Source: an uncultured bacterium (lineage in GTDB: Bacteria; Omnitrophota; Omnitrophia; Omnitrophales; Aquincolibacteriaceae). From it: a stretch of 64,000 nucleotides of DNA. Every line of letters begins with the position of its first letter. The stretch's first letter is position 1. Below, piece after piece: positions 43,886 to 59,741 of the stretch. The translations under genes and the position numbers were made by a program. The notes below the pieces were generated by a model. It worked only from the letters and a program-made list of their open reading frames with translations. It was not told the DNA's origin and did not search any database. The DNA lies in NCBI GenBank assembly GCA_964482725.1, contig CAYZYT010000002.1, forward strand, positions 74,437 through 138,436, read 5' to 3'.

Positions 43886-43964
43886 TGGACCAGAGACTGG
43901 AGACCAGAGACAGGGCTGGCGTTTTCGGCTTCGACTGTAGTCTCTAGGCTGTGGTCTGTGGTCC
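43886..43964. repeat. Long imperfect hairpin built from CAGAGAC/GTCTCTG-type heptamer repeats (same simple-repeat family as inside the giant ORF)
   Basis: GGACCAGAGACTGGAGACCAGAGACAG ... CTGTAGTCTCTAGGCTGTGGTCTGTGGTCC. Confidence 0.5.
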
Positions 43965-44090: not shown

Positions 44091-47000
44091 CTACGCTGAA
44101 GCCTTCACCCTTACCTGAGCCGCTATATAGCTCGTCAGCTCGGCCATTAAGGCTTCTAATCCGCCCAATTTCTCGACAGACACAAAGTGATACCCCATGG
44201 ACCATATCGCCTCATTGAGAAGCTTATCCGCGGCAAGAAGCGCAGAAGCGGTCTGCTTGAGAGGATCCCGAGCCCCGACTACGCTCAAGAGCTGCTTGCG
44301 TGAACCGATCTTCCGGGTCACGACCGAATCCTGACGATCCGTGATAAGCGCCACGGGTTTTCCAACCGGCGCCGCAGCGTTATAAAATTCAGCAAACGCT
44401 CCGACAAACTCGTTCTCGCTTGCGAAAGCCTGCACCTTAAAATTTTGCGGCAGCACGCCTTTCAGGTTCAGGGCCGAAAGTTCTTTTTCAAAAAGAGCGA
44501 CCTCGGAAGCCTCCGCGATCAAAGCCAGCACGACGCCGTCTTTCGGGTTATAAAGCGCGAATGTTACCAGAGGCAGCACGCTCGCAGCATCCGGAACCCC
44601 TTGCCGCTGGTCAATGACCATACGCCCGGTAGAAGCGGTCGCAAAATGGCTGATGATCTCGTTAAACACAGGCCATCTTGTCGCAAAAGCCGGAGGAACC
44701 ACCGGGGCGGCCTGATAATGAACCGTTCCGGCAAAAACCAGCGGCGCGATCTCCGAAGCATACGCCGTCGAACTCGACAGTAGCGGCGAAACCGTATTCG
44801 CCGCCACCCGGATCGCCGTCCCGACCTTCGCTGTCAAACTGGTCGTATCAACTCCGGGGACCAGAGGAATGACGGGCGTCTCATAAGTACGGACTTCAGA
44901 ACGGGCGGTTATTTCGCCTTGCAATAGATCAAGCATCGCGATTTCATCCGCCACTCGCCTCGATTCCTGGTCGATTTTTCTAAGTCGCTCGTCTTGCGAC
45001 GGCATCTCATCGATCCCCAAGGCATTACCGTCCAAACCATTCAAACGGTCGTGCAACTCTGCCAAACGGCTCGCGATCTCAGTTCTTATCTCGTCTAATT
45101 GCAAACGAAGTTTGGCATCCAGCGCCTGCCCAGAAAGGAATTTACCGATAACCTGGCCTGACAACGACTCCCAACGCGATCTCAATCCGTCCGCACGCTT
45201 GGAACGTTCCTTTTCAAGGTTCTCAAGCGCTTGAAAACGGTCAGCGTAAAGTCTCCTGACTGGCGACGTAGCACTGGATCGTACACCAAAAAAACTGTCC
45301 TTGGGTAAGCCTGGCAGGAACCCTTTCAGACGAAACCATGCGGCATTGACTTCTTCCGGGATTGTAAATGCTTTCAGTTCCTCCGGCGCTATTTCCCCGA
45401 TGCGTTCGATATAAAGTACCGTTACTGGATAGGAAAGAGCACTCCCCCCTAAAATTTTTCTCACACGTTCTAGTGAGGCAAGGACTTCTTCCGTGGTCGT
45501 AAACGACTTTAGTCTCTCAGTCTCCTGAATCCGGCTGGCGTAAAGCGCCTCAACCGGTTCAGAGAGAGCGATGCCAGTTGAAACTCCTGCCACGCGGACC
45601 CATGAGGCATAAACTTTTTCGGTGGTAGTGAGTGACTTTAATTCTTTCGGCGCAATCTTTACGATGCGGTCAGCGTAAAGTTTTTCGACCGAACTAAAAA
45701 CATAGGACGCTTCCAAACCCCAATCTTCTCTAAAAATTCCGTGTACGCGGGCCCCGGAAGCAAGAATTTCTTCCAAGGTCGTGAGCTGAGGGAGAACTTT
45801 CTTGATCAATCCCGAGACATCGGTTGCCACGGTTTCCCAACCCCTCTCAACTGTCCAATGCTGCCCATCCATCGAATGCCACTTTAAACGAGCAGCCTTC
45901 ATCACTTCCTGCACTGCCTGATAAGGCTCAGACAATTCAGCGCGTATTGCCAATACCGCATCCACTTGAGCAGTACCGGGTACTCCAGCGGCAGATCGAT
46001 CCAGACGAACTTCGGAGCGGTTGCCAGGACCTATCCCCTCCCAATAGCCTCTATCTTTGTCATCATCTGAACTGCTCGGGCTGGCCTCCGCAGCTTGGCG
46101 TTCTCTTTCGAGCCGCTCAGCCGCTTCACGCGCAAGCTGTTCCTTATAACTAGTTAACGCTTCGCTTGAGCGCGGATCACCGATCTTCACTAGCGCCGCC
46201 GCAACGGCATCGCTAATGGAACGGTCTTTTAATGATTCCACCAACGCAGGGACAGCATTGACATCTTTGGTGTCACCAAGCGCTGTGACTGCAGCGCGAC
46301 GAACATCTGGATACTCATTATTAAGCTGCTTACCAAGCTCCGACAAGGCGTTGATCGCTCGAAGCGCTGAAATAGCAACCGCACGGCTCTCCTTGTCCTC
46401 GAGAGTTAAGGCCTTAACAATTTCGGGAATAGCTTTGCCAAGTTCCTCTTGAGCATTGAGATCAACAAGCGCAGCGATAGCGGCTAAACGCACATCCACT
46501 TCCGCATCATTGAATGCAGTCACAATCCCCGGAATCGATTTATGACCGCGGAGTGCGCTAACAGCCGCCAAGCGGACAACCTTGGCGGTATCATGCAAAG
46601 CAATGTTCAAAGCCGGAACGATACGCGGATCGTTGAGCTCGCCGAGAGCTCTAACAGCAACCACTCGACGGTCCGCACCGCCCTGATTATTAACGATAGG
46701 AACCCCGAGGAACGTACCATCCCACCACTTGGGCTGGAGATTCGACAGCGCCTTCTGGAATTGCTTTTCATCAGCACGCGTCTCATTAATAACAAGAGGA
46801 TAAGAAATATCCGAAGACGAACGAGAATCCCTAGCCTCTTGTTCTTCTGATGCTCTCATATATTCGGCTCTGTCATATTGGGCCCCCTCACCACCTAATA
46901 AACCGAGGAATAGACCCGAACCTGAAATCAGAGAAGGTTCTTGAGTGAACGGGACCCCTTCCCAATTCAACCCAAAATAAACCGCCACTGCAGCAACGCC

Positions 47001-50000
47001 AAGCAGCGCTACGGAAGGGAGAAAAGGATAGATTGTTCCTAGCATTAAATTTCTCTTCTGATCTCCCAGTAATTCCGCACGTACGGTGCCGGCCAAAAAG
47101 GCAGTAGACAAGAGACGAGAGACTGGAGACTGGAGGCTAGAAGCTTTGACTGGAGTCTGTAGTCTGTAGTCTGTGGTCTGAGTTCCCCTCACCTCCGCGC
47201 GCTTGGCGATGCCGGTTTTAAGAACAGAAGCTCCTACTGCCGCGGTTCCGCTGGGAGACACGACGCGAATGAGCTGGCCATAAGTAACCAGTTTCGCTAA
47301 ATTTGCATCCGAGAATTCCCTGGTAAATTCACCGTAAGACCGGTTTCCGTTCGCCGGACCCGAGTACCAGGGAGCAACGCCTTCGGACCAACCTTCCCGT
47401 CCTTCCGCATAACCTCTCGCGGCGATATAACTAAGAATGAACGAATTCATCGCCGAAGCGCTGGATCGGGCCGCAAGAAAAGAGGCTTCCTCAGCAGACG
47501 GAACCGCTGGCTCGGAAGAACCGGAACCATTGCCGTCGGACGTTACTGCCGGAGAATCCGTCGGCTGGGATTCCTCCGCATCATTATCACTGCTCCCACC
47601 CTGCTCACAACCGGCGAGACCCATCACGGCTGCGGCGCCGAAAAGCATTAAAGCGCGCCTTACGCCGCGGTTAACGGTTAACGATGAACGGTTAACGCCG
47701 AGTTTCTCGTTCCCCGTTCCCCGTTCCACGGAACTGTCTGTTGTCTGTAGTCTGTAGTCTGTAGTCTGTTTTGAACGCAGTTCGGCCCTTGACGCCCTAT
47801 GCGACGCAGCGCGCGGAGGCTCATAATTGACCGTCAGCACATTCTGGACCACGCTCTTGTTAAGAGTGATGCCGTCCTTCGCAAGGCCAAGCATCCTGGA
47901 AAAAGCTCGGAAGGGGTCCTTGTTTTTTGAAAGCTGCTTGATCGCCTTGATATTGTGATCCGCCAATCCCTGCAAAATTCTGTTATAAACACCCGCATAC
48001 TTCGTGTCCGGCTCCACGCGATCCGCCGCCACAAAAAAGTTGATAATGTTCACATCGTGCCCTGCCAGGTACAGCATATAAAGAAGCCGGACCACGCTCC
48101 GGGGATCAGTAGCCTTCAGCTTCCGAAAATTGAAGATGGCATTCCGGAAATTCACGGTTTCCATAAAATGCGTGAAGCCGTCGAGATCTCCCTGCCGCTT
48201 AATATCGTTCAATTCACTAAGGACCTGCGCCACTTCGTGAGCTTTTTTCGGATCGGTCGTCGCGAGGTGCTTGATCTTTTCTTCCGTCGCGCGAAGGAGG
48301 TTCGGATCGGAATATTCTTCCCAGGCATGTTCCACAGAGATAGCTTCTTTTCCATTCCCCATAAAGGCGTCCACGAGGCGCACCACGGGCCAATACTTTT
48401 CAATATTAACAAAATAGGAGGATTTGGAAAGTTCCTGCATGAACGCGAAATTCTTGATATGGATGTCAGTGGCAACCCGCACGTTGCGGGAAAGCACATA
48501 GGTCGCTGACTGCAACGCCGCGATCTTGAAATACCGGTACCGGTTGCTAAGACGACCATTGTCGAATACAAACGCCTGCTGGCCGTTGCTTGTCGTCCGT
48601 TCGATCTTGAGCCCCAAAGTCTTCATTTCCTTCACGATGTCCGCAAAAGGCTTTTTAGTGAGTTGAGAAATCGACCGGTAAGAACCCAGCTGTTTGCTGG
48701 AGAACATGACCTCGACGGCCTCCTTACTCAGAGGTGCCGCGCCTGAAGCCGCCGTAAAATTGATCCGGTGAATGTCTTTAAACTCGTCAGCTTTTCGGGC
48801 TTGCTCAACCGCCTGGCTCAGGAAGAAAAGCAGGCGCACAAGGGCTCCCGGCTCCAGAGACTGGAGAAAGAAGATCGCGTAATCCAGGGTCCGCGCTTCC
48901 TCAGCTTTACTGTAAAAATCCCGGAAGTTTTTGTACTCCTTAGGCGATTGATCTTCCAGTTTTTTGAGCTCGGCCTGAACCTCGTCATAGACAGCCTTAA
49001 AATAGGAGGACTGACGGTTGGAGGAAAACTTCCTCATCCGCCATTCGAAGAAGCCTTTCTCGAAATTGGCGATAAAGTTGTCGTCCGTGAGAACGTTGAT
49101 AAAAAAATGCAGTTTATCCACGGACATGGGCTCGCCTTTTTGGGTCGCGAGCACATCCAGCGAATTTAAAAAAGCAAGCGTCCGCAGATAACGGGTCTGG
49201 CCGGCATCCGGAAGACCGGCAAGCTGTTCTTTAAGAGAGGTCAGCAGGTTGTAGGTCGTCCTCTCCCCATATTCAACCGTGCCAAGCTCCACATGGAATT
49301 TGACCAGCCAGAAGACTTCTTTCGCATCTTCCGCAGGATACCCCATGGTTTCAAAAATCTGCTGTTCGCGGATCGCGGCAGCACCGATATCTTCGTGAAA
49401 GTTGGCTTTTTTGCCGATCCCGATATCGTGAAAAAGCACCGCCAGATAAAAGAGCACCCTTCGTTGGGCTTCTTTCGCTTTGTCGCCGCCGGTCCCATAC
49501 CGGATGATCTCCTGGAAAGCGTTGCGATAAAGCTCAAACTGCTCCCGGGTGAACTTGATCCCCTGTTTCTTTTTATTAAATTCATCAAACTGCCCTTTCT
49601 CGATCATTTCCAGATACCCGACCAACTCGAGCGTATGCTCCGAGACGCTGGTGTCCTCGTATTTGGTGAATACATTCTTGAGAATCCGGTTGCCGCTGAC
49701 GTCTTTCTTGGGAATCCCGCGCCCGAAGCGAGGGAACCAGGCGGCCATAGTGCCGTTATCAAAAAGACGTTCCAGGCGGTTGACGAGAGTCCCCGGCCCT
49801 TCGAAATCGAGCGCTTCCCGGAGTTTTTCCGGCACTTCCTTGCGCGCAAAATCCGGATGACTGCGATCAATATAGATCTTCTCCATCTCGCTTTCCTTCT
49901 GCTCCACAGGGTCGATCCCCTGCTCTTTTTGGGCGGAAGGCCCCTCATTTTGCTGCTCTTCCACGCTCTTCCGCTGTTTAAACATGTTATCAACGGACTC

Positions 50001-53000
50001 CCGGAGCGATGTCGGGGAACCCTCCCCGAAATGCAGGGTCGAAAAATTCCGTTGTAGGGTCACAAGGCTGTAAACAAGATCCTTCTCCTCGTCATTGAAC
50101 AGATTCGAGAACACCTTGAGGAATTGAGGGAGGATCTTCCACGAATCGGTCGCCTCATCGTTCTGAAAGAGCCGGGCATAATGCTGGAGAAACGCGGTCA
50201 ACCAGAGGATCTTCTTAAGAGGCTGCGATTTCTTATCGGTGTAGTCATTGGTCTCGACAACGCCATAGGCATCGATCAACTTCCGGACAGACTCCGTGTG
50301 CAGCTTCCCGGGCTGGATATCCATCGCCCGCCTTCCGTCGAAGAACTCCTGGATCTTCCGGCTGTCCTCTCGACGCGAGCTGTAAGCTTCCAGATGGCTC
50401 AGGATGTCGTACGTCGTTTTCAGCTGATCGTACCGGGAGGATGTCGTCACAGTCGCTTCGGGAACAAAGGCCAGCTCACTGAGGAGCGTGACATCGTTCA
50501 GCGCTCTCCAGAATCCGTCCAGATTCTCCTTCGCGCTGAGCCATTGAGCGACAAAAGTGCCCCGTTTGTCGGCCGGCAAATTCTTGTGAAAAAGATTCAC
50601 GGCATTTTCAAGTTTGAGGGTCAATTCCTTCCGCCTCGTACTATCGGAATCCATGGCATCGTCATACGCAAGCGCTTTCACAAAAGCATGCGTTGCATTC
50701 TTATAGTCACCGATGCTCAGGTAATGATCCCCCATCGCTCCAAAAAGCTCGATCAGAGCTTCCATGTCCACCACCGGCGCCTGGACTTTCCCGTAAAGAG
50801 TTCCGACATATTCCCGAAGCGCCTTGAGGGATTCTTTGGGATCCAGATGATCCTTACTGTATTTTTCGATCAATATCCTGACCGACGGATGGAAAACGGC
50901 GTTCTTCTCCATCAGAGGAAGATAGTCTTTTCTCATGGTTTCGAAGGTACCGTTCTGCCCCACCATGTAATCCAGCACGTTCATCAACACAAAAACCTGC
51001 TCCGTCAGGAAGAGCTCTTCGGACACACCCTTCCCTTTAGTCGGCCGTAAAGAAAGAAATGCCTGGAGAGCTCCCTGATAGAGCAATCCCCGGGTAAACA
51101 ACCCGGCTCCGGCAACCGCTCCATCACTGGCCAGCTTTCCGGCCCCCAACACTGATTCCGCGAGAACCATCGCTTCGCCCGCCGGATCATATCCGCCCGC
51201 AACCCACAAAGGATCGGCTTTTGCGGCAACATTGTTGGTCATATTGATATTGCGGCCAAACCGGATGGCTTTGATCTTCCCCGGCCCCTGGCCCTGGGAG
51301 AAATACATATCCCGTACGAGAAGGTTCTCCGAGCTGATCCGGGAGAAAGCAGTTTGAAAGATCTTTGTTTTTTGTTCTTTTTCTTCAATGCTTCCGGAAA
51401 ATCTAGCCCCCTCAAGATCCGCGACCGTCTTCGCCGAACGGATCTCGCCTAAAAGCTCCGTATGAAAATCCGGCGTCTTGCCGGGCAACAGGACACCATT
51501 CAAAACCCACGGCAAGCTCACAAGGTTGCCGAAAGTATCCGCCCCGGCCTTCTTCTCCTCCGCGCGAACCTCCGCACGCTTGGCGATGCCTGTTTTAAGG
51601 ACAGAAGCTCCTACCGCTGCGGTTCCGCTGGGAGACACGACGCGAATGAGCTGGCCATAAGTAACCAGTTTCGCTAAATTTGCATCCGAGAATTCCCTGG
51701 TAAATTCACCGTAAGACCGGTTTCCGTTCGCCGGACCCGAGTACCAGGGAGCAACGCCTTCGGACCAACCTTCCCGTCCTTCCGCATAACCTCTCGCGGC
51801 GATATAACTAAGAATGAACGAATTCATCGCCGAAGCGCTGGATCGGGCCGCAAGAAAAGAGGCTTCCTCAGCAGACGGAACCGCTGGCTCGGAAGAACCG
51901 GAACCATTGCCGTCGGACGTTACTGCCGGAGAATCCGTCGGCTGGGATTCCTCCGCATCATTATCACTGCTCCCACCCTGCTCACAACCGGCGAGACCCA
52001 TCACGGCTGCGGCGCCGAAAAGCATTAAAGCGCGCCTTACGCCGCGGTTAACGGTTAACGATGAACGGTTAACGCCGAGTTTCTCGTTCCCCGTTCCCCG
52101 TTCCACGGAACTGTCTGTTGTCTGTAGTCTGTAGTCTGTAGTCTGAGTTCCCTGCACTTCGGAACGTTTTGCGATGCTTGTTTGCAGAAGCTCTTGCTTG
52201 AATGATTTCCACCAGGCGCCTTGGAAATCGTTGTCGATGGACTGAAGCTTTTTGATGGATTCGACCGCGATCCCATACCGGTCGTCAGACGTATTGAGCG
52301 TATCGCCGAACGAGACAAACAAACGGGCGAGGTCCCAAAGAAAGGCTCCCGGGCCCAGAAGAGAGGGAATTGCATCAAGCTCTTCTGCCGTGAGTTTTTG
52401 AGCGATCTCCTGCTGGTATCCGCTCAGAAGGGCTTTGAGATTCTCCCGGTCATAAGCTCTTACCCTCAACCGGCTGAATCCTGCCGCCGAGGAAAAAACA
52501 TTTTTAAAATCTTCGATGCGGGCCTGCCCCTCACGGCTGCGTTCCCAATCCAGCAACGCTTTGACATCGCTACCGCTCTCATTCCACAGGACATTCCCCA
52601 TCTTGACATCCCCGTGAACGGCCACGGAGGGCAAGCTGTGATATTGCTCTAAAGACAATTTTGTTTTCAGGACTTCGATCTCGGCCAGAATAAAATCGGC
52701 ATGCTCGCGGAACAGTTTTTCGCCCCTCGAATTTCGCCCGGGGTTCTGCTCCAAGGTGTTTTTCAGCGCCCGGAGATCCCCTTCCGCCGTCGTGATATCG
52801 ATCGCCAAGCGCTCGTGTTTTTCGCCCTCCGGGGTGAATCCCGAAAGCGCATTGTGCAGCTGCGCTATGACTTTCCCGAGCTGCTCAAAATGACGGGGCT
52901 GAGCATCCTCATAGGCGATCGTTCTTCCCCCTGGGATGAACTGCTCCACGTAGTAATACAGACCTCCGGCCTCCACAAGGTATTCACCCTTCCGGTTTTT

Positions 53001-56000
53001 CAGGATTCCGGGCACGCGAACGCCTTGTTCGTGCGCTCTGACGGCTATGGAAATCACGAATTTGGCTTTTTTCTCATTATCCGAACCGTATTTCAAAACA
53101 AATTGCCCTGTGGGCGATGTGATCAGCAGGGGCTCCCGCATCAGTGTGCCACCGGGAAGCTTTTTGATTTCTAACTGCTGGGGCGCTGTGACACCCAGGT
53201 CATAGTTTTGAAGCATCGTATCGATCAGCGAATCCGTAGTGACAGGAGCGCTCTGACCTTGCCACCGCTGATAATTTTTGATCACCGATGACGGCTGACG
53301 CCAAAGAGGAACGGTGGGACTCGTGGTAACATTCGCAGCCGTCTCCCGCACTTCGGAGCGGATCGTAATCGCATCGCCGATCTCATGGCTCAACACCCCT
53401 TTATCTGCCAGGATCTTTAACCCGGCTTGAACCAATTTCTCAAAAACCAGAATATCGACAGCAGACTTTACCTCAGCAAACAAGGGGACATCCTCGGTCC
53501 CACCCGTCCGAGAAAGAATGGAGAACTCCCTCAAGCTGAGGTCGGCATTCGCATAACTCAGCGGCTCTTTTCTCTCGACCCCCTCACGCTCAAATCGCTG
53601 GCGAATACGTTTCTCCACGACGCCATGCCACATCCCGCTGATCTGCTCCCATTGAATCAATGGCTGTCCCGATTCTTTCTTTTCAACATACTCGTATGGA
53701 AGCAGCTTTGAAAAACTCAGCATCAGTTGCTCTTCCTGTTCCAGAGTCAGCTTCTCCAACCGCTGCTTCAACTGCGCCAAAGCCGTCGCATCCATATCGG
53801 AGATCTTCTGGACTTCAGGCCATGTGATCAAAGAGCGGCCTTCCACCTCAACACCCTCCGATACGGCATACAGCAAGGCGGCTTGATTGATGACATTAAT
53901 AAAAGTCGAGAATAAAGTGATGTCTTTATCCGCCAGAAAACCGTTCTTATTCTTTTCCTTGGAGATCGGAGTATCCACAATATCGGGTTGGCCGTTGACG
54001 GTCACATAGCCACCTCCGGCTTGCCCCAAGTTACGCCAATTTCCAATACCTACATGGGCAAGACTGTGCTTTGCCATGAAACCAAGCACCCGGTCAAATT
54101 GTTTTTGTCCCAATTGCGCGGTCGGACCGTCCGCTGAACGAAGGATCGAGTAAACTTCGCCCCGCATCAATCCTTGAATGAAGGCGAACATAAAACCCAT
54201 GCCATCCCCATGCCCCAGCACGCTCTCGGGTCTTTCCACGATTTGACCCTCTTTGACGACCCAGACGCGGCTAGTATTGAAGGCGATAGCATCCACGGGC
54301 ACTCGGGCAAGGTTCCCGTTGCGGGCGTTGCGCTCGAGGATCTCATAGGTCGCACCAAGGAAAGGCTTCCAGGTCCAGGGGCTAAGCGTATAGCCAAGAC
54401 GGACAGGGCTTCCATTCCCTGCTAATTTGATAAGATTATCCATGGCGAGTTTGACCCCCGTCCCGCCATCCGTATTCTGATTCCCGTACCAGAAAGCAGC
54501 GAGAGCCCGCGGAAGGTCCGTGGGGACATCGTCTGCATTCATCACGCCAGCATCGATCAACGGCTCCAAGGATGAAAACCAGCGAGTTGCCTTCCCCGCC
54601 GCCAGCAGAACTTCCCTGACTCCTCCACGCCCCGCGATATTCCTGCCGGTTTTCTCAAATTCAGCGAGATCGTTCATTTTGCCGTCCGCCACCCGCTGGA
54701 TCACATCTTCCGGGATATTCAGCGAAACAAGCCGCAAAGCGATCTCGTTCAGTTTAAGCGAAGCGGAAAGACCCAGTTGTTTTTGAATGTCCTCCAGAAA
54801 TGCCGAGCGGCTCAAAAGAAGCGCCTTCTTAAATTCCCAATTCAGCGCTGTCTTCAAAAGCAGTGTCACCGAAAGCAAAGCTTCCGCGAAATCGGAAACG
54901 ACCGCATGACTCACGGGCGTGCCGGCGGGAACAATGCCAAGCTCCTTAATGACATTGAGGACCAAAACAGGATCTTTTCTGAAATCATTCTCGAATTTAA
55001 CCAACGCGTTAAACCGAACCACGGGATCTTTTAACGCCTGCTTCGAATATTTTTCGATCAATCCCTCCAACTCATGGACATTGACCCCCCCGACCTTTTC
55101 AGGCAGGACCATTTGATCGGAAGCATCGAGAGTGAGCGGCAAACCCTCGATCAGTCTCTTTAATATCTGACGCGTCAAATATGTCGAGACGATCCTTTCG
55201 GGTGGATAAAGACTCCATACATCCGCGCGAAGGTCCTGCACCTCCAGTGCTCCAGCATCGTTATAACCGATCTGGGCAGTCTTCATCCGCTTCCCAAGAT
55301 TTTCAAAATTCACGGGATTACCGAATTCATTTTCCGTCACCTGACGGATCTCATCCATGCTCGGCTTCTCCAGTTCGTCCCCAATCTTGAACCAAAGCGA
55401 AGTGGTCCGGTCCGCCAGCGGATTCTCCTTAAGTTTCAGATCCGATAAGAACGGGATCGCGATCGCGGTCTGGATCCCTTTAAATATCTGCAAAAGCGCC
55501 AACTGCCGGTCGTGGACCGGCACATTCCGGCTCGTACGCTCCAACGCCTCGGCCGCGTCCAAAAATTTTGAAATATGTTCCAAAACCTCGCTCTTGACCG
55601 TGGGCCACTCCAAAACATTCATCTCCTGCAGCCTCTTCAGATCCGTGTCGAGCAAGGAAGCTCCTGCTTGCGCTGCAATCCGCACTTCCGAGCGGGATTC
55701 TTTGGCGGCCGAAGCCCCTGGTGCTAGCCACAGATCACCTTCACCCGCGCGCTGTCCTTCGCCCTTTGACCGCTGCCCGTTCTTCTGTTCCCCTCTCGCA
55801 TTACGGGCTTCCACCTGCCCGGCCAAAAGAATGATCCTCTCAAAAACCTTCCGGGCGGCAATATTTCGTTCATCTTCGTTACGGGACAAATCCAGTTCTT
55901 TTGCATATCGCGAAAGAATATCCACAAGATCCAGGTCGCCAGCGACATGGTACAGCGCCGATGACTCTTCGCCTTGCGTGCCCACTGTGGTTTGCATGAC

Positions 56001-59000
56001 CGAACCGAATCGGTCCATGATTCTCAGCCGTTCGGCAGGATCTGAAATCTTCCCAAAAGCTTCCCCGCCGAGGAATGCGCCCAACATCTGGAATAAATTG
56101 CCTCTCAGCGAAAAAGTGACCGGACCGGATACACTCTCCTGGGAATCCTCGTACTCACCGTGGTCAATAATATCCACCGCGATCTCAAAGAATTTATCGA
56201 GCACTTGTTTTCGCTCCGCAGAGCTCTTGATCTGACCGTATCCTTTACCGCTCAATAGCGAGTCGAGTGCGTCAAAAACGCGATAGCTGTATTTAGAGCC
56301 ATACCGATGCATGTCGAAGCGCAGTGAAGCGTCATAGCATTTCGCCAGGATCTGTTTTCGTTCTTCGAGCGCGCTTATCCGGCCAAACCCGCTCCCGGCA
56401 AACAATTGACTGAGTGAACCAAGCGCTTGCTGCGCCTCGTATTCCTCGGAAGACGATACGGCGAATCTACTAACAATATTTTCCACCTGCCGCCGCACCT
56501 CGGCTTGCTGGGCCGCATCCGCGATCGCCAGGAACCAGCCGTAATTTTCCAACACCATGCGAACCTCGGAGCGGGCGGCATCAGGAGCCAATTCACCATC
56601 GATCTTCAGAACATGGGTTTTTTGATCTTGATAAGTCCCGGCGAGAACATAACCGTTCCCGAGATCAAGAAGAGAACCGACCTCTCCTCCAAGCCGTTCC
56701 GCGAGGTCGGCGATCCACTCGATCCCCCCCGTAATAGCCCCCGAGCCGTCCTTCACGGTTTTCACAACATAGGTTTTGCCATTCAACCCGACGAGAACAT
56801 AACCATTTCCGAGATCAAGAAGAGAATCGACATCTCCTCCAAGCGGTCCCGCGAAAGTGTAAATCTTCTTAATCCCCGTAATAGCCCCCGAGCCGTCCTT
56901 TTCGGCTTTCAGAATATGGATTCTTGAATCATCCTCAGTTCCGGCGAGAACATAACCGTTCCCGAGATCAAGAAGAGACCAGACATATCCTCCAAGCGGT
57001 TCCTCGCGGGAGGAGAACCTCTCTATCCCCGTAATAGCCCCCGAGCCGTCCTTCACGGTTTTCAAAACATGGGTTTTACTATCCAGAGTCCCGGCGAGAA
57101 CATAACCGTTCCCGAGATCAAGAAGAGACGTGACACGTCCTCCAAGCGGTTCCGCGAGGGAGGAGATCTTTTCGATCCTCGTAATTGACCCCGAGCCGTC
57201 CTTCACGACTTTCAGAACATGGGTTTTTTGATCATCAAAAGTCCCGGCGAGAACATAACCGTTCCCGAGATCAAGAAGAGACCTGACATTTCCTCCAAGC
57301 GGTTCCGCGAGGGAGGAGATCTTTTCGATCCCCGTAATTGCCCCCGAGCCGTCCTTCACGGCTTTCAGAACATGGGTTTTTTGATCATCAAAAGTCCCGG
57401 CGAGAACATAACCGTTCCCGAGATCAAGAAGAGACCTGACATTTCCTCCAAGCGGTTCCGCGAGGGAGGAGATCTTTTCGATCCCCGTAATTGCCCCCGA
57501 GCCGTCCTTCACGGCTTTCAGAACATGGGTTTTTTGATCTTGATAAGTCCCGGCGAGAACATAACCGTTCCCGAGATCAAGAAGAGACAGGACCCCTCCT
57601 CCAAGCGGTTCCGCGAGGGAGGAGATGGACCTGACGCCGTCCACTTTTTGAAAACGCGATTTCGGAATCACGGCCCCGGGCTTTTTTGCGGCTTCCGCCG
57701 CATCCGAAGAGATCATATCCCCAGTGACCATGGCTTCGTTGCGGATCTCGGAGCGGGAGCCAAGCTGACTGGCGGCGAGCACGTGAGATAACAACGAATG
57801 CGCAAAAACCGAAGAGAGCGCCTGGCTGTTAACTTTCTCGGAACGGATCATGTCAAGTATGAGAGCACGGACATTGCGAGCCCAATCCTGGGTCGCAGCG
57901 GCACCGGTCACAGCAACGCGCTCAGCACGGCCGACGAGACCGAGAAGGGCGGGCATTTGGGAGGTTTCAATATCACGGCTTCCGAGGATCGAGCGGAGAT
58001 ACACTTCTCGATCGTTCTTGGAGACTTCATTAATACGGGGAGTGATCTGGACATAAGAGCAATGCTTGGATGCGGCGAGAGCCTTAAGGCCGTCGGCATG
58101 GAATCCGCCGGTCACGATCACGGCGCGTTGCTGCTTTTGCTCGCTCATTTTCGAGAGAGCATTACGAAACATGGCGTTTTCACGGACAATCGCGGTCTCG
58201 TAAAACTCGACCGCATTCGCGAAAACAGACTGGAGACTAGTGACTGGAGACTGAAGCACCTTGTTTTTAGTCTGTGGTCTCTGGTCTGTGGTCTGTAGTC
58301 CCGCCGCAAGCTCGTCGGGAGAAATACGGAAACTCTGAAGCTCAGCATATTCTTTCCTAGTCAATTCAAGACTAAATAGGCGCCTGAGCAAGTAGAGCTT
58401 GCGAGCGGCGGAAAGATACGCTTTCTCATCCGCCGTCTTGGCGAGTGCGGTCTCGATATTGTCTTTCAGCTTGATCGTTTCTTCCTGCAACCCCTTGCCC
58501 TGGAGTTCCTGCATTAGGATCGTCTGCTGGGCATAGAGCGTCCAGTTGGGCCATTGTTTCATTGAGAAATTCTTGGGAAGCTTCGCGAAGGCCATGTCAA
58601 AGGCCCGACGCACGACGGAATATCCGTCTGCGTCGCGGTTAACGGTTAACGATGAACGGTTAACGTTACGTTCAGCGCTGTTTCGTTCCCCGTTTCCCAA
58701 TGATTGTTCGTTCCCCGTTCCCCGTTCCCCGTTCCCCGATGCCGCCTCGAAGGCATGTATAATTTCCTTCGACATTCCAAGCTTCTTAAGCTCAGCAAGA
58801 AAAGAGGCCTGCTCCGCCGCCGCTTTATCCCGGTCAATTTTCGATCCGATCGCCACCAGGCGGTAGTACCGGATAAGGGACGGATACTGGTCCTGATAAA
58901 AGGCGTCCGAGAGGTCGAGCTTGAGGTGCTTCTTACTCCCCTCACCGAGGGCCTTGAGCCAGCCTTCGAAGGAAACGGTTCCCGAACCAAACGCCTCTTC

Positions 59001-59741
59001 CTGGCGGACGAGGTTCAGGAGATCTTTATTCAGCTTCGATGCGTAACGTTTGTCGATCGTGGCCCGCAAAGAGCCCAGGAACTTCTCCGCGGTTTTTTCC
59101 TTCTTCACGACGCTGATAAATGCTTCACGGTCTTTTTTGTACGAATCGAGGTCTTCCACGCCGAACGCCGCCATGCCGGCGGCGCGTTTCGCGGGGAACG
59201 TGGAACGTGGAACGTTTGCGTTAACCGTTTCCCGTTTCCCGTTTCCCGGTAATTGTTCGTTCCCCGTTTCCCGTTCCCCGATTTTTTGATTTATCAAAAA
59301 ATTCTCCGGCCCCGTCAAATACCCTTCCTGCATCAGCTTATCCGTGACCTTCTGATTGAATGCGGGATTCTCGGGAAAAAGTCGGAAGAGTTCCGGCTGG
59401 AGCTTCGCAGCAGCGCCTTCAAGAAGCATTAATTTGACGGATGAATTCTTCTCGATATAACCGAGGAGTTTCTCAATGTTTTTTTCAGCCTGATAATTCC
59501 CGTGCGCAGATTGAATATGAATGAAGGCCGGAGCTTTCGGATCACCCTTAAGGGTATCTGTCACCTGGCCGAGTTCGGCCGGGATCGAGAGCATTCCGGC
59601 GGGCAATGAAGACACCTCCGGATTGAGCGTGGGCACACCCGTGGCAGCGAATGCATTCGGGCTGATCTGGAGGCTGGTAATAAAGAAGGTAAAAACGACG
59701 GTGGAGGCGATTAACTTCATGCTGGGATGGCGTTGGCTCAT
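44091..59741 (-). CDS. Giant open reading frame (5216 codons, single frame, no stop). It is a mosaic: signal peptide; 8 x 51-aa tandem repeats; UDPGP-like nucleotidyltransferase motif; APH/choline-kinase-like kinase; HD domain; TM + HEAT repeats; duplicated lipoprotein-like module. It may be a true giant gene, or several genes bridged by stop-free simple repeats.
   Basis: Uninterrupted frame from ATG 59741 (AAGGA RBS, MKLIASTVVFTFFITSLQISPNAFAA signal) to TAA 44091, followed by a terminator. Recognisable motifs all lie in this one frame: HGDVKMGNVLWNE...LLDWE (APH Brenner motif), VLGHGDGMGF (UDPGP), VLFHDIGIGKK...HEDIGAAA (HD), HEAT/PBS-lyase repeats VRALGELNDPRIVPAL. See the findings for caveats. 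Confidence 0.5.
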   Translation of the reverse strand: MSQRHPSMKLIASTVVFTFFITSLQISPNAFAATGVPTLNPEVSSLPAGMLSIPAELGQVTDTLKGDPKAPAFIHIQSAHGNYQAEKNIEKLLGYIEKNSSVKLMLLEGAAAKLQPELFRLFPENPAFNQKVTDKLMQEGYLTGPENFLINQKIGERETGNEQLPGNGKRETVNANVPRSTFPAKRAAGMAAFGVEDLDSYKKDREAFISVVKKEKTAEKFLGSLRATIDKRYASKLNKDLLNLVRQEEAFGSGTVSFEGWLKALGEGSKKHLKLDLSDAFYQDQYPSLIRYYRLVAIGSKIDRDKAAAEQASFLAELKKLGMSKEIIHAFEAASGNGERGTGNEQSLGNGERNSAERNVNRSSLTVNRDADGYSVVRRAFDMAFAKLPKNFSMKQWPNWTLYAQQTILMQELQGKGLQEETIKLKDNIETALAKTADEKAYLSAARKLYLLRRLFSLELTRKEYAELQSFRISPDELAAGLQTTDQRPQTKNKVLQSPVTSLQSVFANAVEFYETAIVRENAMFRNALSKMSEQKQQRAVIVTGGFHADGLKALAASKHCSYVQITPRINEVSKNDREVYLRSILGSRDIETSQMPALLGLVGRAERVAVTGAAATQDWARNVRALILDMIRSEKVNSQALSSVFAHSLLSHVLAASQLGSRSEIRNEAMVTGDMISSDAAEAAKKPGAVIPKSRFQKVDGVRSISSLAEPLGGGVLSLLDLGNGYVLAGTYQDQKTHVLKAVKDGSGAITGIEKISSLAEPLGGNVRSLLDLGNGYVLAGTFDDQKTHVLKAVKDGSGAITGIEKISSLAEPLGGNVRSLLDLGNGYVLAGTFDDQKTHVLKVVKDGSGSITRIEKISSLAEPLGGRVTSLLDLGNGYVLAGTLDSKTHVLKTVKDGSGAITGIERFSSREEPLGGYVWSLLDLGNGYVLAGTEDDSRIHILKAEKDGSGAITGIKKIYTFAGPLGGDVDSLLDLGNGYVLVGLNGKTYVVKTVKDGSGAITGGIEWIADLAERLGGEVGSLLDLGNGYVLAGTYQDQKTHVLKIDGELAPDAARSEVRMVLENYGWFLAIADAAQQAEVRRQVENIVSRFAVSSSEEYEAQQALGSLSQLFAGSGFGRISALEERKQILAKCYDASLRFDMHRYGSKYSYRVFDALDSLLSGKGYGQIKSSAERKQVLDKFFEIAVDIIDHGEYEDSQESVSGPVTFSLRGNLFQMLGAFLGGEAFGKISDPAERLRIMDRFGSVMQTTVGTQGEESSALYHVAGDLDLVDILSRYAKELDLSRNEDERNIAARKVFERIILLAGQVEARNARGEQKNGQRSKGEGQRAGEGDLWLAPGASAAKESRSEVRIAAQAGASLLDTDLKRLQEMNVLEWPTVKSEVLEHISKFLDAAEALERTSRNVPVHDRQLALLQIFKGIQTAIAIPFLSDLKLKENPLADRTTSLWFKIGDELEKPSMDEIRQVTENEFGNPVNFENLGKRMKTAQIGYNDAGALEVQDLRADVWSLYPPERIVSTYLTRQILKRLIEGLPLTLDASDQMVLPEKVGGVNVHELEGLIEKYSKQALKDPVVRFNALVKFENDFRKDPVLVLNVIKELGIVPAGTPVSHAVVSDFAEALLSVTLLLKTALNWEFKKALLLSRSAFLEDIQKQLGLSASLKLNEIALRLVSLNIPEDVIQRVADGKMNDLAEFEKTGRNIAGRGGVREVLLAAGKATRWFSSLEPLIDAGVMNADDVPTDLPRALAAFWYGNQNTDGGTGVKLAMDNLIKLAGNGSPVRLGYTLSPWTWKPFLGATYEILERNARNGNLARVPVDAIAFNTSRVWVVKEGQIVERPESVLGHGDGMGFMFAFIQGLMRGEVYSILRSADGPTAQLGQKQFDRVLGFMAKHSLAHVGIGNWRNLGQAGGGYVTVNGQPDIVDTPISKEKNKNGFLADKDITLFSTFINVINQAALLYAVSEGVEVEGRSLITWPEVQKISDMDATALAQLKQRLEKLTLEQEEQLMLSFSKLLPYEYVEKKESGQPLIQWEQISGMWHGVVEKRIRQRFEREGVERKEPLSYANADLSLREFSILSRTGGTEDVPLFAEVKSAVDILVFEKLVQAGLKILADKGVLSHEIGDAITIRSEVRETAANVTTSPTVPLWRQPSSVIKNYQRWQGQSAPVTTDSLIDTMLQNYDLGVTAPQQLEIKKLPGGTLMREPLLITSPTGQFVLKYGSDNEKKAKFVISIAVRAHEQGVRVPGILKNRKGEYLVEAGGLYYYVEQFIPGGRTIAYEDAQPRHFEQLGKVIAQLHNALSGFTPEGEKHERLAIDITTAEGDLRALKNTLEQNPGRNSRGEKLFREHADFILAEIEVLKTKLSLEQYHSLPSVAVHGDVKMGNVLWNESGSDVKALLDWERSREGQARIEDFKNVFSSAAGFSRLRVRAYDRENLKALLSGYQQEIAQKLTAEELDAIPSLLGPGAFLWDLARLFVSFGDTLNTSDDRYGIAVESIKKLQSIDNDFQGAWWKSFKQELLQTSIAKRSEVQGTQTTDYRLQTTDSSVERGTGNEKLGVNRSSLTVNRGVRRALMLFGAAAVMGLAGCEQGGSSDNDAEESQPTDSPAVTSDGNGSGSSEPAVPSAEEASFLAARSSASAMNSFILSYIAARGYAEGREGWSEGVAPWYSGPANGNRSYGEFTREFSDANLAKLVTYGQLIRVVSPSGTAAVGASVLKTGIAKRAEVRAEEKKAGADTFGNLVSLPWVLNGVLLPGKTPDFHTELLGEIRSAKTVADLEGARFSGSIEEKEQKTKIFQTAFSRISSENLLVRDMYFSQGQGPGKIKAIRFGRNINMTNNVAAKADPLWVAGGYDPAGEAMVLAESVLGAGKLASDGAVAGAGLFTRGLLYQGALQAFLSLRPTKGKGVSEELFLTEQVFVLMNVLDYMVGQNGTFETMRKDYLPLMEKNAVFHPSVRILIEKYSKDHLDPKESLKALREYVGTLYGKVQAPVVDMEALIELFGAMGDHYLSIGDYKNATHAFVKALAYDDAMDSDSTRRKELTLKLENAVNLFHKNLPADKRGTFVAQWLSAKENLDGFWRALNDVTLLSELAFVPEATVTTSSRYDQLKTTYDILSHLEAYSSRREDSRKIQEFFDGRRAMDIQPGKLHTESVRKLIDAYGVVETNDYTDKKSQPLKKILWLTAFLQHYARLFQNDEATDSWKILPQFLKVFSNLFNDEEKDLVYSLVTLQRNFSTLHFGEGSPTSLRESVDNMFKQRKSVEEQQNEGPSAQKEQGIDPVEQKESEMEKIYIDRSHPDFARKEVPEKLREALDFEGPGTLVNRLERLFDNGTMAAWFPRFGRGIPKKDVSGNRILKNVFTKYEDTSVSEHTLELVGYLEMIEKGQFDEFNKKKQGIKFTREQFELYRNAFQEIIRYGTGGDKAKEAQRRVLFYLAVLFHDIGIGKKANFHEDIGAAAIREQQIFETMGYPAEDAKEVFWLVKFHVELGTVEYGERTTYNLLTSLKEQLAGLPDAGQTRYLRTLAFLNSLDVLATQKGEPMSVDKLHFFINVLTDDNFIANFEKGFFEWRMRKFSSNRQSSYFKAVYDEVQAELKKLEDQSPKEYKNFRDFYSKAEEARTLDYAIFFLQSLEPGALVRLLFFLSQAVEQARKADEFKDIHRINFTAASGAAPLSKEAVEVMFSSKQLGSYRSISQLTKKPFADIVKEMKTLGLKIERTTSNGQQAFVFDNGRLSNRYRYFKIAALQSATYVLSRNVRVATDIHIKNFAFMQELSKSSYFVNIEKYWPVVRLVDAFMGNGKEAISVEHAWEEYSDPNLLRATEEKIKHLATTDPKKAHEVAQVLSELNDIKRQGDLDGFTHFMETVNFRNAIFNFRKLKATDPRSVVRLLYMLYLAGHDVNIINFFVAADRVEPDTKYAGVYNRILQGLADHNIKAIKQLSKNKDPFRAFSRMLGLAKDGITLNKSVVQNVLTVNYEPPRAASHRASRAELRSKQTTDYRLQTTDSSVERGTGNEKLGVNRSSLTVNRGVRRALMLFGAAAVMGLAGCEQGGSSDNDAEESQPTDSPAVTSDGNGSGSSEPAVPSAEEASFLAARSSASAMNSFILSYIAARGYAEGREGWSEGVAPWYSGPANGNRSYGEFTREFSDANLAKLVTYGQLIRVVSPSGTAAVGASVLKTGIAKRAEVRGTQTTDYRLQTPVKASSLQSPVSRLLSTAFLAGTVRAELLGDQKRNLMLGTIYPFLPSVALLGVAAVAVYFGLNWEGVPFTQEPSLISGSGLFLGLLGGEGAQYDRAEYMRASEEQEARDSRSSSDISYPLVINETRADEKQFQKALSNLQPKWWDGTFLGVPIVNNQGGADRRVVAVRALGELNDPRIVPALNIALHDTAKVVRLAAVSALRGHKSIPGIVTAFNDAEVDVRLAAIAALVDLNAQEELGKAIPEIVKALTLEDKESRAVAISALRAINALSELGKQLNNEYPDVRRAAVTALGDTKDVNAVPALVESLKDRSISDAVAAALVKIGDPRSSEALTSYKEQLAREAAERLERERQAAEASPSSSDDDKDRGYWEGIGPGNRSEVRLDRSAAGVPGTAQVDAVLAIRAELSEPYQAVQEVMKAARLKWHSMDGQHWTVERGWETVATDVSGLIKKVLPQLTTLEEILASGARVHGIFREDWGLEASYVFSSVEKLYADRIVKIAPKELKSLTTTEKVYASWVRVAGVSTGIALSEPVEALYASRIQETERLKSFTTTEEVLASLERVRKILGGSALSYPVTVLYIERIGEIAPEELKAFTIPEEVNAAWFRLKGFLPGLPKDSFFGVRSSATSPVRRLYADRFQALENLEKERSKRADGLRSRWESLSGQVIGKFLSGQALDAKLRLQLDEIRTEIASRLAELHDRLNGLDGNALGIDEMPSQDERLRKIDQESRRVADEIAMLDLLQGEITARSEVRTYETPVIPLVPGVDTTSLTAKVGTAIRVAANTVSPLLSSSTAYASEIAPLVFAGTVHYQAAPVVPPAFATRWPVFNEIISHFATASTGRMVIDQRQGVPDAASVLPLVTFALYNPKDGVVLALIAEASEVALFEKELSALNLKGVLPQNFKVQAFASENEFVGAFAEFYNAAAPVGKPVALITDRQDSVVTRKIGSRKQLLSVVGARDPLKQTASALLAADKLLNEAIWSMGYHFVSVEKLGGLEALMAELTSYIAAQVRVKASA
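47190..47768. repeat. Copy B of the 578-bp segmental duplication, ending in [GGTTAAC]n [CGTTCCC]n [TCTGTAG]n heptamer tracts
   Basis: See copy A; the heptamer blocks lie at 47643-47768. Confidence 0.85.
51569..52145. repeat. Copy A of a near-exact 578-bp segmental duplication inside the giant ORF (copy B at 47190-47768)
   Basis: The plus-strand shadow ORFs 47437-47757 and 51814-52134 are identical over 106 aa. Flanks diverge after a few mismatches at the 5' edge. Offset about 4378 bp. Confidence 0.85.
56570..57650. repeat. Tandem array of eight 153-bp (51-aa) repeats inside the giant ORF (SSLAEPLGGxVxSLLDLGNGYVLAGTxxDxKTHVLKxVKDGSGAITGIEKI)
   Basis: The unit ...GCGAGAACATAACCGTTCCCGAGATCAAGAAGAGA... 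recurs every 153 bp (for example at 57400 and 57553) with high nucleotide identity. Confidence 0.75.

Follow-up and report, generated by a model that had tools for sequence, protein, structure and literature searches.

A giant Omnitrophota gene of eleven modules punctuated by a junction pentapeptide, and its possible processing as a polyprotein

Within the 64-kb stretch of DNA analysed here (the window), a 15.6-kb reading frame (44091-59741, minus strand) is one real gene of Omnitrophota, and its product of 5,216 aa is built of eleven unrelated modules. The RSEVR motif at all ten module junctions is the most informative feature of this giant ORF and was absent from the preliminary description of the locus. 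From the sequence we infer, with a probability of roughly 55%, that the product is a head-to-tail polyprotein which would be cut at or next to this motif.

A single gene and its modules

The frame opens with an ATG at 59741 and runs to 44091 on the minus strand, as do all features below, and its 5,216 codons plus stop contain zero internal stops, in agreement with the preliminary description. When codon usage was modelled on the housekeeping genes nearby, the giant-ORF frame was the best-scoring one in 68 of 68 sliding 150-codon windows, most of which reached a housekeeping-level coding score; therefore, the frame is coding through every junction and every simple-sequence block. The gene is cellular and chromosomal, priA, fmt and def adjoin it, and the neighbouring priA is 74-81% identical to loci of Omnitrophota MAGs. 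Coding throughout, together with a large family that keeps its head and C-terminal end and varies in the middle, upholds the earlier reading of one real giant gene. The ribosome-binding site proposed with it is AAAGGA, about 11 nt upstream of the ATG, and is only modest.

A Sec-type signal peptide, as claimed before, occupies aa 1-33 (59643-59741; ...SPNAFA/ATG, cut site AFA/A) on the basis of sequence and alignments; P28 and A32 are invariant among the aligned close homologues, and AF2 gives a helix at residues 6-23 followed by a disordered stretch. The head, M1 (aa 1-667, 57741-59741), contains a predicted TIKI/erythromycin-esterase-fold domain, interrupted by a large helical insertion, and is closed by motif 1, RSEIR (aa 663-667, 57741-57755), around which residues 660-667 are predicted by AF2 to be disordered (pLDDT below 50). 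M2 (aa 668-1061, 56559-57740) consists of about seven tandem 51-aa repeats (LLDLGNGYVLAG...; TRF period 153 x 6.7) and ends in RSEVR at 56559-56573; the propeller-like array described earlier exists as a 153-nt tandem array, with a copy number of 6.7-7 rather than 8. M3 (aa 1062-1354, 55680-56558, closing RSEVR at 55680-55694) is without known domain or homologue, and M4 (aa 1355-2132, 53346-55679, closing RSEVR at 53346-53360) is an orphan module. A GHGD motif had led to a UDPGP-like label for M4, which finds no support: neither Pfam nor NCBIfam gave any match for M4 at E<=0.1, UDPGP and NTP-transferase models included, a homology search of M3 and M4 against 5.8 billion proteins returned zero matches, M4 matched none of the head family members, and PDB sequences gave no match for M4, M10 or M11.

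M5 (aa 2133-2530, 52152-53345, closing RSEVQ at 52152-52166) is the APH-family kinase recognised earlier (PF01636, E=4.6e-16; 59.7 bits, cut-off 23.2); it carries HGDVKMGN and LLDWE, the HGD..N and DWE catalytic motifs of APH/choline-kinase-like phosphotransferases, and also matches homoserine-kinase/CotS-like models. M6 (aa 2531-2726, 51564-52151, closing RAEVR at 51564-51578) joins a heptamer hairpin block to a lipoprotein-signal-like segment (RRALMLFGAAAVMGLAGC), and M8 (aa 3990-4185, 47187-47774, closing RAEVR at 47187-47201) is its second copy, so that the two lipoprotein-like copies reported before are present, about 530 nt of them being 100% identical. Between these lies the large module M7 (aa 2727-3989, 47775-51563, closing RAELR at 47775-47789), whose GlnD-like HD region was also recovered, weakly (NCBIfam 9e-9, Pfam HD 0.047); M7 recurs as a unit in another giant of the family, P0140 (residues 2700-3990 against 4579-5961, 44% identity by blastp). 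M9 (aa 4186-4579, 46005-47186, closing RSEVR at 46005-46019) holds a hairpin block, a TM helix at aa 4240-4258 and then, as described, HEAT/PBS-lyase repeats (HEAT_2 2.5e-21, HEAT_PBS 1.5e-14). M10 (aa 4580-4951, 44889-46004, closing RSEVR at 44889-44903) has no known domain, and the tail, M11 (aa 4952-5216, 44094-44888), is a conserved C-terminal module ending in ...AAQVRVKASA and the stop; in relatives it is always C-terminal and always preceded by the motif. The homologies of M7 and M11 end at the motifs of the window. Overall, the protein is tiled by the APH kinase, HD, HEAT, the 51-aa array, the TIKI-fold head and several orphans, none of them dominating.

The junction motif in the window and in the family

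The pentapeptide R-[S/A]-E-x-R occurs in 10 copies in the giant ORF against 0.095 expected, one per module junction, and is missing from the other real ORFs in the 64-kb window. Its codons vary synonymously across the ten junctions, indicating that it is kept as peptide and not as DNA. A DNA-level junction signal, such as a recombination site, an RNA motif or an internal Shine-Dalgarno sequence, was ruled out by this wobble and by variation of the Arg codon family, and a plausible Shine-Dalgarno-ATG pair was seen at one junction only. Internal initiation at the lipoprotein-like signals was ruled out for two cases, the closest relative, L013, and GVRR of the window: in L013 these internal signals begin with GTT (Val) and have no start codon, and the Val of GVRR in the window is GTA. 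In the literature, the string RSEVR yielded irrelevant matches only, and no paper was found that joins Omnitrophota with the term polyprotein.

Homologues of the head comprise 1,231 cluster representatives (E<=1e-30), and nearly all head-bearing members listed are 1,000-7,800 aa long. The named members all belong to Candidatus Omnitrophota, and the head family is apparently specific to this phylum. Most members finish in a helix ending in -[S/A]A. L013 shares the head, the position after priA and the motif, and its modules are entirely different; across the family, modules are homology units reshuffled at the motif marks and include DapA, GDH, glycogen phosphorylase and adenylate, guanylate and cytidylate kinases, with HEAT modules common.

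In 148 head-family proteins the motif was counted 868 times against 12.7 expected, with a density of ~2.2 per 1,000 aa in the family bodies, compared with 0.02 in ordinary Omnitrophota ORFs and 0.05 within the heads. In an unbiased 5-mer count, all but one of the ten most widespread peptides were R[SA]ExR variants, and near-variants are rare (RSD.R 8, KSE.R 25 and RSE.K 14, against 709 for RSE.R); in about a quarter of the copies Ala replaces Ser. Information is confined to the five motif positions, and the motif lies in short linkers poor in hydrophobic residues, which make up 0.26 of the flanks against 0.32. In 84 of 113 proteins the first motif falls between residues 550 and 700, and the median spacing is 218 aa. 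Since Pfam gave almost no domains on motif-rich relatives, module borders were assessed by homology endpoints: 33% against 6% of these lie within 10 aa of a motif, and 120 HSPs cross a motif where 323 were expected. TM or signal-like segments are enriched ~3-fold within 15-30 aa downstream of motifs, and in several members lipoprotein signals begin immediately past the motif; 74% of motifs have no hydrophobic segment in the next 30 aa.

In a subgroup of the family, [AG][AS]SLG takes the place of RSExR with near mutual exclusion (90, 20, 2 and 9 proteins), and 9 of 121 long members do not carry at least two copies of either motif. The order of listing in an NJ tree hinted at a clade and thereby at the head as determinant of motif specificity; this idea was dropped, as the mean-distance permutation gave p=0.28 and no column of the head alignment separates RSExR from xxSLG proteins. 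Hence, the association of motif type with head may reflect organism lineage only.

Two observations concern chain ends. The motif sits 3-5 residues ahead of some genuine C-termini (RSEIRKAA and stop, followed by thrS), and proteins ending just past a motif number 3 of 113, which is not clearly above chance. In the assemblies L081-L084, one in-frame TAG, two residues past the motif, splits the head from the body. This is the one informative case of homologues with separate modules, which the preliminary description had named as evidence for several genes. Separation is thus tolerated exactly there, an outcome that fits processing and leaves the single-gene reading intact.

The head domain and the hairpin blocks

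In the AF2 model, built on 44 sequences after an earlier 9-sequence model (pLDDT 47) was discarded, the head is a TIKI/erythromycin-esterase-fold domain with a predicted alpha/beta fold and a parallel beta-sheet core, and about 330 residues of inserted helices split this core. A fold of this kind is common to Ere, ChaN, HopBA1, TraB and RRSP. H80 (59502-59504), E108 (59418-59420) and, within an invariant G545-G546-x-H548, H548 itself (58098-58100) are invariant in the 44 head sequences, and the 28-residue His-Glu spacing equals that of Bcr135 H85/E113 and RRSP H3902/E3930 (PMC6254334). The first Glu (E-x-H) of the 2His/2Glu set of RRSP is unmatched, the head having S78 there. Among curated models, PF04187, PF01963 and PF05139 gave no significant match to the heads; three of the 11 heads had PF04187 hits short of the threshold (E 0.0046-0.079; 13-17 bits, cut-off 27.7). 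A Foldseek search of the head model against the PDB returned nothing significant, and a search of the PDB with the head sequence profile returned nothing. The TIKI superfamily also holds esterases and the haem-binding ChaN, which weakens a protease reading of the head.

Heptamer simple-sequence blocks, noted before, are present and read in frame. The first insert in the head forms a hairpin (59154-59294, -59 kcal/mol, z=-6.5), is disordered in the AF2 model and varies among homologues; similar heptamer blocks lie at 58620-58745, 58224-58310, 52026-52151, 47649-47774 and 47088-47186. Hairpin elements occur at three of the ten junctions of the window, are absent from seven, and some lie inside the head. 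The region past the stop codon (43833-43963) holds a heptamer hairpin as well as two stem-loops that are followed by T tracts and resemble terminators; the terminator-like hairpins of the intrinsic terminator reported earlier are there, at about 130-260 nt from the stop and not at 50-100 nt. These blocks recall the Rickettsia palindromic elements, reportedly described by Ogata et al. in 2000 as selfish hairpins that insert in frame into genes for proteins. In both, repeat hairpins lie in frame in coding DNA, here also in the housekeeping gene priA, and the protein accommodates them as surface loops; unlike those elements, the blocks found here are heptamer tandem repeats with imperfect arms.

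Processing, its alternatives and known systems

Under the polyprotein reading, the giant chain would be synthesised as a single precursor, to be cleaved into separate proteins at or beside the motif in the manner of viral polyproteins or MARTX toxins, and modules whose first element is a signal, a lipobox or a TM segment could then be targeted individually. The cis-encoded TIKI-fold head may be the protease, being the most obvious candidate. The full form of this proposal, in which a substantial set of the enzymes, lipoproteins and membrane proteins of Omnitrophota would be made as Sec-led polyproteins and cut at R-[S/A]-E-x-R or [AG][AS]SLG by a TIKI-fold protease placed as first module in every precursor, is put forward only tentatively. 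The earlier description of one multifunctional protein, right as to the single gene, is probably incomplete: the punctuation between modules speaks for a precursor that is processed into several products. Cutting near a true C-terminus would free almost nothing, so the motif may be a recognition or docking element at module ends and not purely scissile. Counting against processing, the head bears an export signal, whereas many modules are ATP-using enzymes of cytoplasmic type.

A serious but rather unlikely alternative is that the chain stays uncut as a multi-enzyme scaffold of ~570 kDa, a membrane-tethered 'metabolon' or surface machine, with the motif serving as a linker, a hinge or a docking site that the head or the HEAT modules, for instance, might bind without catalysis in order to organise the chain. 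Both termini are kept family-wide, as expected of a product that acts as a unit, HEAT scaffolding modules are common, published views are of membrane-anchored multi-domain giants, and cleavage would be pointless just ahead of true C-termini. However, a strict five-residue motif with unconserved flanks in exposed linkers, swapped wholesale in a subgroup, is what one expects of a site recognised by an enzyme and not of a passive hinge; a signal, lipobox or TM segment often opens a module immediately past the motif, a stop codon just past the head motif is tolerated in four assemblies, and the embedded DapA, GDH and glycogen phosphorylase normally act as free oligomers. It is distinctly improbable that the motif serves a non-proteolytic process repeated per module, such as co-translational pausing or arrest, a modification, or a targeting or insertion cue in which its arginines would be the positive n-region for the next hydrophobic segment. 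The enrichment of hydrophobic segments immediately past the motif and the RNA hairpins at three junctions of the window would suit such a role, but most motifs (74%) are followed by no such segment within 30 aa, seven of the ten junctions have no hairpin while hairpins also lie inside the head, and roughly one copy in four has Ala instead of Ser, which argues against phosphorylation. To our knowledge, no arrest peptide resembles RSExR.

The preliminary description had left room for an operon, a recent pseudo-fusion or an artefact of read-through or assembly, with internal initiation or stops lost in assembly, and this we regard as very improbable. Some modules do have apparent signal peptides of their own, AAGG-N9-ATG precedes MLFGAAAV in M6 and M8, head and body are separate ORFs in one relative, and the perfect 530-nt repeat of M6 and M8 could confuse an assembler. 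Against this stand ten in-frame, stop-free junctions that bear the same peptide motif in different codons, an uninterrupted coding signal, and the same architecture, with first and last modules kept, in more than 1,000 cluster representatives from many independent assemblies. Moreover, the internal signals of L013 lack a start codon, Met is absent from the listed residues enriched past the motif, and the 'separate' head of L081 is in frame with its body, with one TAG between them.

Among known systems, the polyprotein reading has partial counterparts. In MARTX toxins, the multifunctional autoprocessing RTX toxins of Vibrio and relatives, conserved ends flank central modules that vary by strain and are separated by processing sites; of this layout the family shows conserved ends, modules that vary and a motif at the junctions, the last being a putative processing site. 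MARTX toxins carry a type I secretion signal at the C-terminus, unlike the N-terminal Sec signal found here, and the giant differs further in its defined pentapeptide at junctions and in its largely housekeeping-type enzymes, with no known toxins; RTX or glycine-rich repeats are absent, with no RTX/HemolysinCabind match in any module at E<=0.1, and the Peptidase C80 domain, the inositol-phosphate-activated cysteine protease of MARTX toxins, is absent by Pfam and NCBIfam. With the polyproteins of picornaviruses and flaviviruses it shares one ORF, unrelated products, a short linker motif and a candidate cis protease. Internal signal sequences of flaviviruses are cut by host signal peptidase, and the internal lipobox or signal segments past motifs are a likeness to them; unlike viral polyproteins, this is a chromosomal cellular gene, its modules are hypervariable in close relatives, and its cleavage is putative.

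Giant genes of Omnitrophota, including a 'multi-enzyme metabolic cluster' class, have been published (10.1101/2023.11.21.568195; 10.64898/2026.06.07.730766), and the present gene shares with that class the phylum, long ORFs tiling unrelated enzyme, HEAT, kinase and HD domains, and often a signal peptide and TM segments. Both studies dealt mostly with proteins of at least 10,000 aa, and clustering gave mostly sequence-unique proteins (10.1101/2023.11.21.568195; 10.64898/2026.06.07.730766). The giant ORF, at 5,216 aa, misses the cut-off of at least 10,000 aa used by Nielsen & Lui, and the lengths of its listed members place the head family largely below it. Neither West-Roberts et al. 2023 nor Nielsen & Lui 2026 mentions a TIKI-fold head, an -[S/A]A end or a junction motif, and in the former, missing cleavage points blocked structure-based dissection of the giants (10.1101/2023.11.21.568195). 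Giant genes of Omnitrophota are thus known, and the grammar of motif, head and tail is new; because such genes were already published, the term 'novel system' in the preliminary description was overstated for the giant gene itself, and it is justified for the punctuation grammar.

Omnitrophota giant genes rank among the largest known, and whether they act as one chain or are cut, and at which points, is a stated open question. The motif and the conserved end modules lead to testable predictions, namely sites in the proteome, a candidate protease with three residues and a rule by which the proteins can be split for structure prediction and annotation. If processing were refuted, the motif would remain an unexplained, strongly selected element of giant-protein architecture. 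If processing is true, this would be a rare large and diversified polyprotein family in cells, a cellular counterpart of the viral strategy in which modules are gained, lost and swapped as motif-bounded cassettes. The motif would then provide a computational rule for dissecting the giant proteins of the phylum, and would bear on proteome organisation and delivery in ultra-small, possibly predatory bacteria.

Reading frame, neighbourhood and in-frame repeats

The giant gene lies at 44091-59741 on the minus strand as an ATG-initiated ORF of 5,216 codons, without internal stop in the ORF listing and translation. With a codon-usage model trained on 13 neighbouring housekeeping genes, its coding frame was preferred by log-likelihood in 68/68 sliding windows, mostly at housekeeping-level scores; codon score and GC3 were lower at residues ∼4000-4900. 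This stretch corresponds to modules M8-M10 (window 44900-47800), where GC3 is 0.43-0.54 versus ∼0.6 and the host-codon fit is weaker than in the rest, a pattern compatible with later acquisition of these modules. The neighbours are ordinary chromosomal genes on the same strand, i.e. UDG and priA upstream, and a DUF3313 lipoprotein, Ppnp, def, fmt, a histidine kinase, gap, pgk, recG, smc and alaS downstream. No annotatable gene of the 64-kb window (1-64000) lies on the plus strand, which is an unusually strong bias.

The preliminary description had favoured a single giant gene, and this view holds: one frame is coding throughout, and head and tail are conserved around a variable middle. Its APH kinase, HEAT/PBS repeats and a weak GlnD-like HD domain were recovered with Pfam and NCBIfam, and the signal peptide, the duplicated lipoprotein-like module and the in-frame heptamer blocks are present as well. 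The 51-aa array was found with ∼7 rather than 8 copies, and the terminator-like hairpins do lie 3′ of the stop codon, but at ∼130-260 nt instead of 50 to 100 nt. The module called ‘UDPGP-like’ found no support in Pfam, NCBIfam, PDB sequences or 5.8 billion proteins.

Imperfect heptamer-repeat hairpins of the types GGGGAAC/GTTCCCC and CAGACTA/TAGTCTG lie in frame within the giant ORF, on the minus strand, at 59154-59294, 58620-58745, 58224-58310, 52026-52151, 47649-47774 and 47088-47186, the strongest reaching -59 kcal/mol (z = -6.5). They come after 3 of the 10 junction motifs described below; those in the head fall in loops disordered in the AF2 model, and their sequences vary from one head homologue to the next. 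They are reminiscent of in-frame selfish palindromic elements. The N-terminal ∼180 codons of priA (window 59947-62598) form an extension that holds a G[DG]P[ED]xKTGFPLKxxGND repeat twice in frame, and priA of the closest relative, L013 (RIFOXYB12_FULL_50_7), has a heptamer-type block too (L013 1377-1493). In this lineage, repeat elements thus insert in frame into housekeeping genes.

The adjacent priA also served as synteny anchor in 185,579 species-representative genomes. Its best matches are Candidatus Omnitrophota MAGs (74-81% identical), and among these only L013 has a giant ORF after priA; a priA-linked giant gene is absent at this position in more distant relatives. The L013 ORF starts with a clear homologue of the head (66% and 50% identity), and its sole apparent frame break falls on a run of N. 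Its body modules are entirely different from those of the window, yet RSEVR/RAEVR separate them too.

A junction motif between modules

The pentapeptide R-[S/A]-E-[V/I/L]-[R/Q], mostly RSEVR, occurs ten times in the giant protein (starts at residues 663, 1057, 1350, 2128, 2526, 2722, 3985, 4181, 4575 and 4947), against 0.095 copies expected from shuffling, and it was found in none of the other real ORFs of the 64-kb window. Every copy marks a boundary between two kinds of sequence, and the protein is thereby split into 11 modules, from the head M1 (aa 1-667) to the tail M11. The ten copies use different codons, varying at wobble positions and among the codons for Arg, thus it is the peptide that is under selection, not a signal in DNA or RNA. 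Module boundaries are also homology boundaries: another giant, P0140, contains M7 as a unit (44% identity over residues 2700-3990, near the motifs at 2722 and 3985), and all alignments of M11 to relatives begin at 4943-4947, by the motif at 4947.

The same punctuation runs through the family. In an unbiased 5-mer count over 148 relatives with heads excluded, the six most widespread words were RSELR, RSEVR, RSEAR, RSEMR, RSETR and RSEIR, and R[SA]ExR variants made up nine of the top ten; these relatives are the proteins that match the head best, and they derive from automatic gene prediction on metagenome contigs, some of them being truncated. R-[SA]-E-[LVAMITS]-R has 868 copies there, compared with 12.7 expected from simple shuffles, and RSE.R has 709, compared with 7-25 for each of RSD.R, RSQ.R, KSE.R, RSE.K, RES.R and SRE.R. 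Per 1,000 aa, motif density is 2.17 in bodies, 0.05 in heads and 0.02 in ordinary Omnitrophota ORFs (∼150,000 residues). The first copy falls at the head end, residues 550-700, in 84/113 proteins, and the median spacing is 218 aa (interquartile range 106-424).

Information is confined to the five positions, and the motif lies in exposed linkers. The 10 residues on each side are poor in hydrophobics (0.26-0.27 versus 0.32) and rich in Ser, Pro, Thr and acidic residues, a bias that has faded to background by 15-20 residues, and in the AF2 head model pLDDT is <50 at residues 660-667, which hold RSEIR. In an all-against-all comparison, 33% of homology starts (6% at random) and 17% of homology ends (5% at random) lie within 10 aa of a motif, and 120 of 587 alignments cross one, compared with 323 under random placement. 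Signal- or anchor-like hydrophobic segments are ∼3-fold enriched within the 15-30 residues that follow the motif, and in several members a canonical lipoprotein signal begins directly after it.

In L081-L084 (GCA_040767405.1 and three further assemblies), a gene of its own encodes the head; this 649-aa product ends in SRAELRQD and is followed after one TAG by a multi-enzyme ORF of 2,291 or 3,707 aa in the same frame and with no further stop. Nature thus tolerates a split between head and body precisely at the motif. L081/L082 (JAXGOQ010000001.1, 1478217-1500166) holds giant genes in tandem, an 8,710-aa gene with the tail-like end AAQAIATSA preceding the head gene, the in-frame TAG and the multi-enzyme body. 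In two assemblies with identical heads, the bodies differ by a 1,370-aa indel. Some true C-termini consist of the motif and 3-5 residues, i.e. RSEIRKAA (then thrS) and RAELRIAIAA, so the motif marks module ends and is not only an inter-module spacer.

A second motif, [AG][ASQ]SLG, occurs in 20 long members without RSExR (P0079, P0091, P0101, P0104, P0118, P0121, P0122, P0126, P0127, P0133, P0142, P0143, P0161, P0163 and others). It is alike in character: the core is five residues long, the flanks are polar and the median spacing is 484 aa. The two classes are nearly exclusive (RSExR only, 90 proteins; xxSLG only, 20; both, 2; neither, 9). Nearest-neighbour heads mostly agree in motif type (15/20 and 91/92). 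Since a mean-distance permutation test on heads was not significant (p = 0.28) and no head alignment column discriminating the classes was found, we read this pattern as lineage structure and not as a sign of specificity set by the head.

Conserved head and tail

A word-indexed search returned only eight homologues of M1, and when 1.84 billion cluster representatives were searched exhaustively with an HMM, 7,549 matched at E ≤ 1e-3 and 1,231 at E ≤ 1e-30. M1 occupies residues 1 to ∼600 in nearly all of the best 150 matches, in proteins of 1,000-7,800 aa, and all members carrying organism names are Omnitrophota. Pipeline labels reflect one embedded enzyme, such as adenylate kinase (7,019 aa), DapA family (7,123), GDH (7,823) and UGPase (6,292); a further member embeds a glycogen phosphorylase.

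At the other end, M11 forms the exact C-terminus in the closest relatives, always preceded by the motif, while upstream modules differ. The C-terminal residue is Ala in 104/134 family proteins >1,000 aa (AA 52, SA 44); before it runs an amphipathic pattern marked by Leu at -15, Ala at -9 and I/V/L at -5. This -[S/A]-A-COOH amphipathic-helix ending (P0020-P0167; window aa 5203-5216), 96/134 versus a 9% Ala background, is found in both motif classes; it could act as a degron or as a signal for secretion or docking. That both ends are conserved around a middle that varies is a strong argument for every giant ORF being one unit from head to tail.

Based on a predicted model, we assign the head to the TIKI fold as a divergent domain; support from sequence is weak, with PF04187 matches below threshold and no significant match from Foldseek or from a profile search of the PDB. 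Among the residues invariant across 44 heads are H80, E108, R520 and G545-G546-x-H548. The 28-residue H80-E108 spacing is like that of His-85/Glu-113 in Bcr135 and His-3902/Glu-3930 in RRSP (PMC6254334), and candidate hydrolytic residues are probably kept. At L085 (12118-13212), an IS element, whose DDE_Tnp_1 transposase is encoded on the opposite strand, truncates a head gene (P0002) immediately behind the head, and a module string is absent there.

Known giant proteins and proposed processing of the chain

Giant genes of Omnitrophota are already published (West-Roberts et al. 2023, bioRxiv 10.1101/2023.11.21.568195; Nielsen & Lui 2026, bioRxiv 10.64898/2026.06.07.730766). The former proposed autoproteolysis via C39 or S8 domains as possible and could not split the proteins for want of cleavage-point information; the latter defined a ‘multi-enzyme metabolic cluster’ class among proteins of at least 10,000 aa, mostly sequence-unique. 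In term searches, the main texts of both gave no mention of a TIKI/ChaN/TraB-like head, MARTX or polyproteins; that of Nielsen & Lui has no word beginning ‘motif’ or ‘cleav’, and the single displayed ‘motif’ in West-Roberts et al. is in the reference list. The gene encodes an Omnitrophota giant modular protein, whose head-motif-tail grammar is previously undescribed as far as these open-access texts extend. The nearest functional analogue is the MARTX toxin, with conserved ends, swappable effector modules and linker cleavage, but a Pfam search of the giant ORF found neither the RTX repeats nor the C80 protease that define this toxin.

An operon or assembly artefact is highly improbable given one frame that is coding throughout; in its favour, M6 (51564-52151) and M8 (47187-47774) are a direct duplication 4.4 kb apart, ∼530 nt of which are 100% identical, the 12 mismatches in 588 nt being confined to the ends. 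Either M7 is flanked by a very recent duplication, or short-read assembly could misjudge copy number at this site, and the perfect repeat is a possible weak point for copy number with the reading frame unaffected. That the motif is a pause, targeting or modification signal is improbable too; in favour of it, hydrophobic segments are enriched after the motif. An uncut scaffold, with the motif as a docking or hinge element, is a less probable but serious alternative: the motif next to some true C-termini speaks for it, and the stop tolerated right after the motif of the head speaks against it.

We favour, at a probability of about 0.55, that the giant chain is made as a precursor, which would be cleaved at the motif or beside it to yield separate proteins. 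As to where cutting would occur, the signs are mixed: the head has a Sec signal, whereas many modules are ATP-/NTP-using enzymes, and no convincing TM segment was found between residue 33 and ∼2568 of the window's giant protein. It is more speculative, and rather doubtful, that the TIKI-fold head is the processing enzyme. After cutting, modules opening with signal, lipobox or TM segments would be targeted individually.
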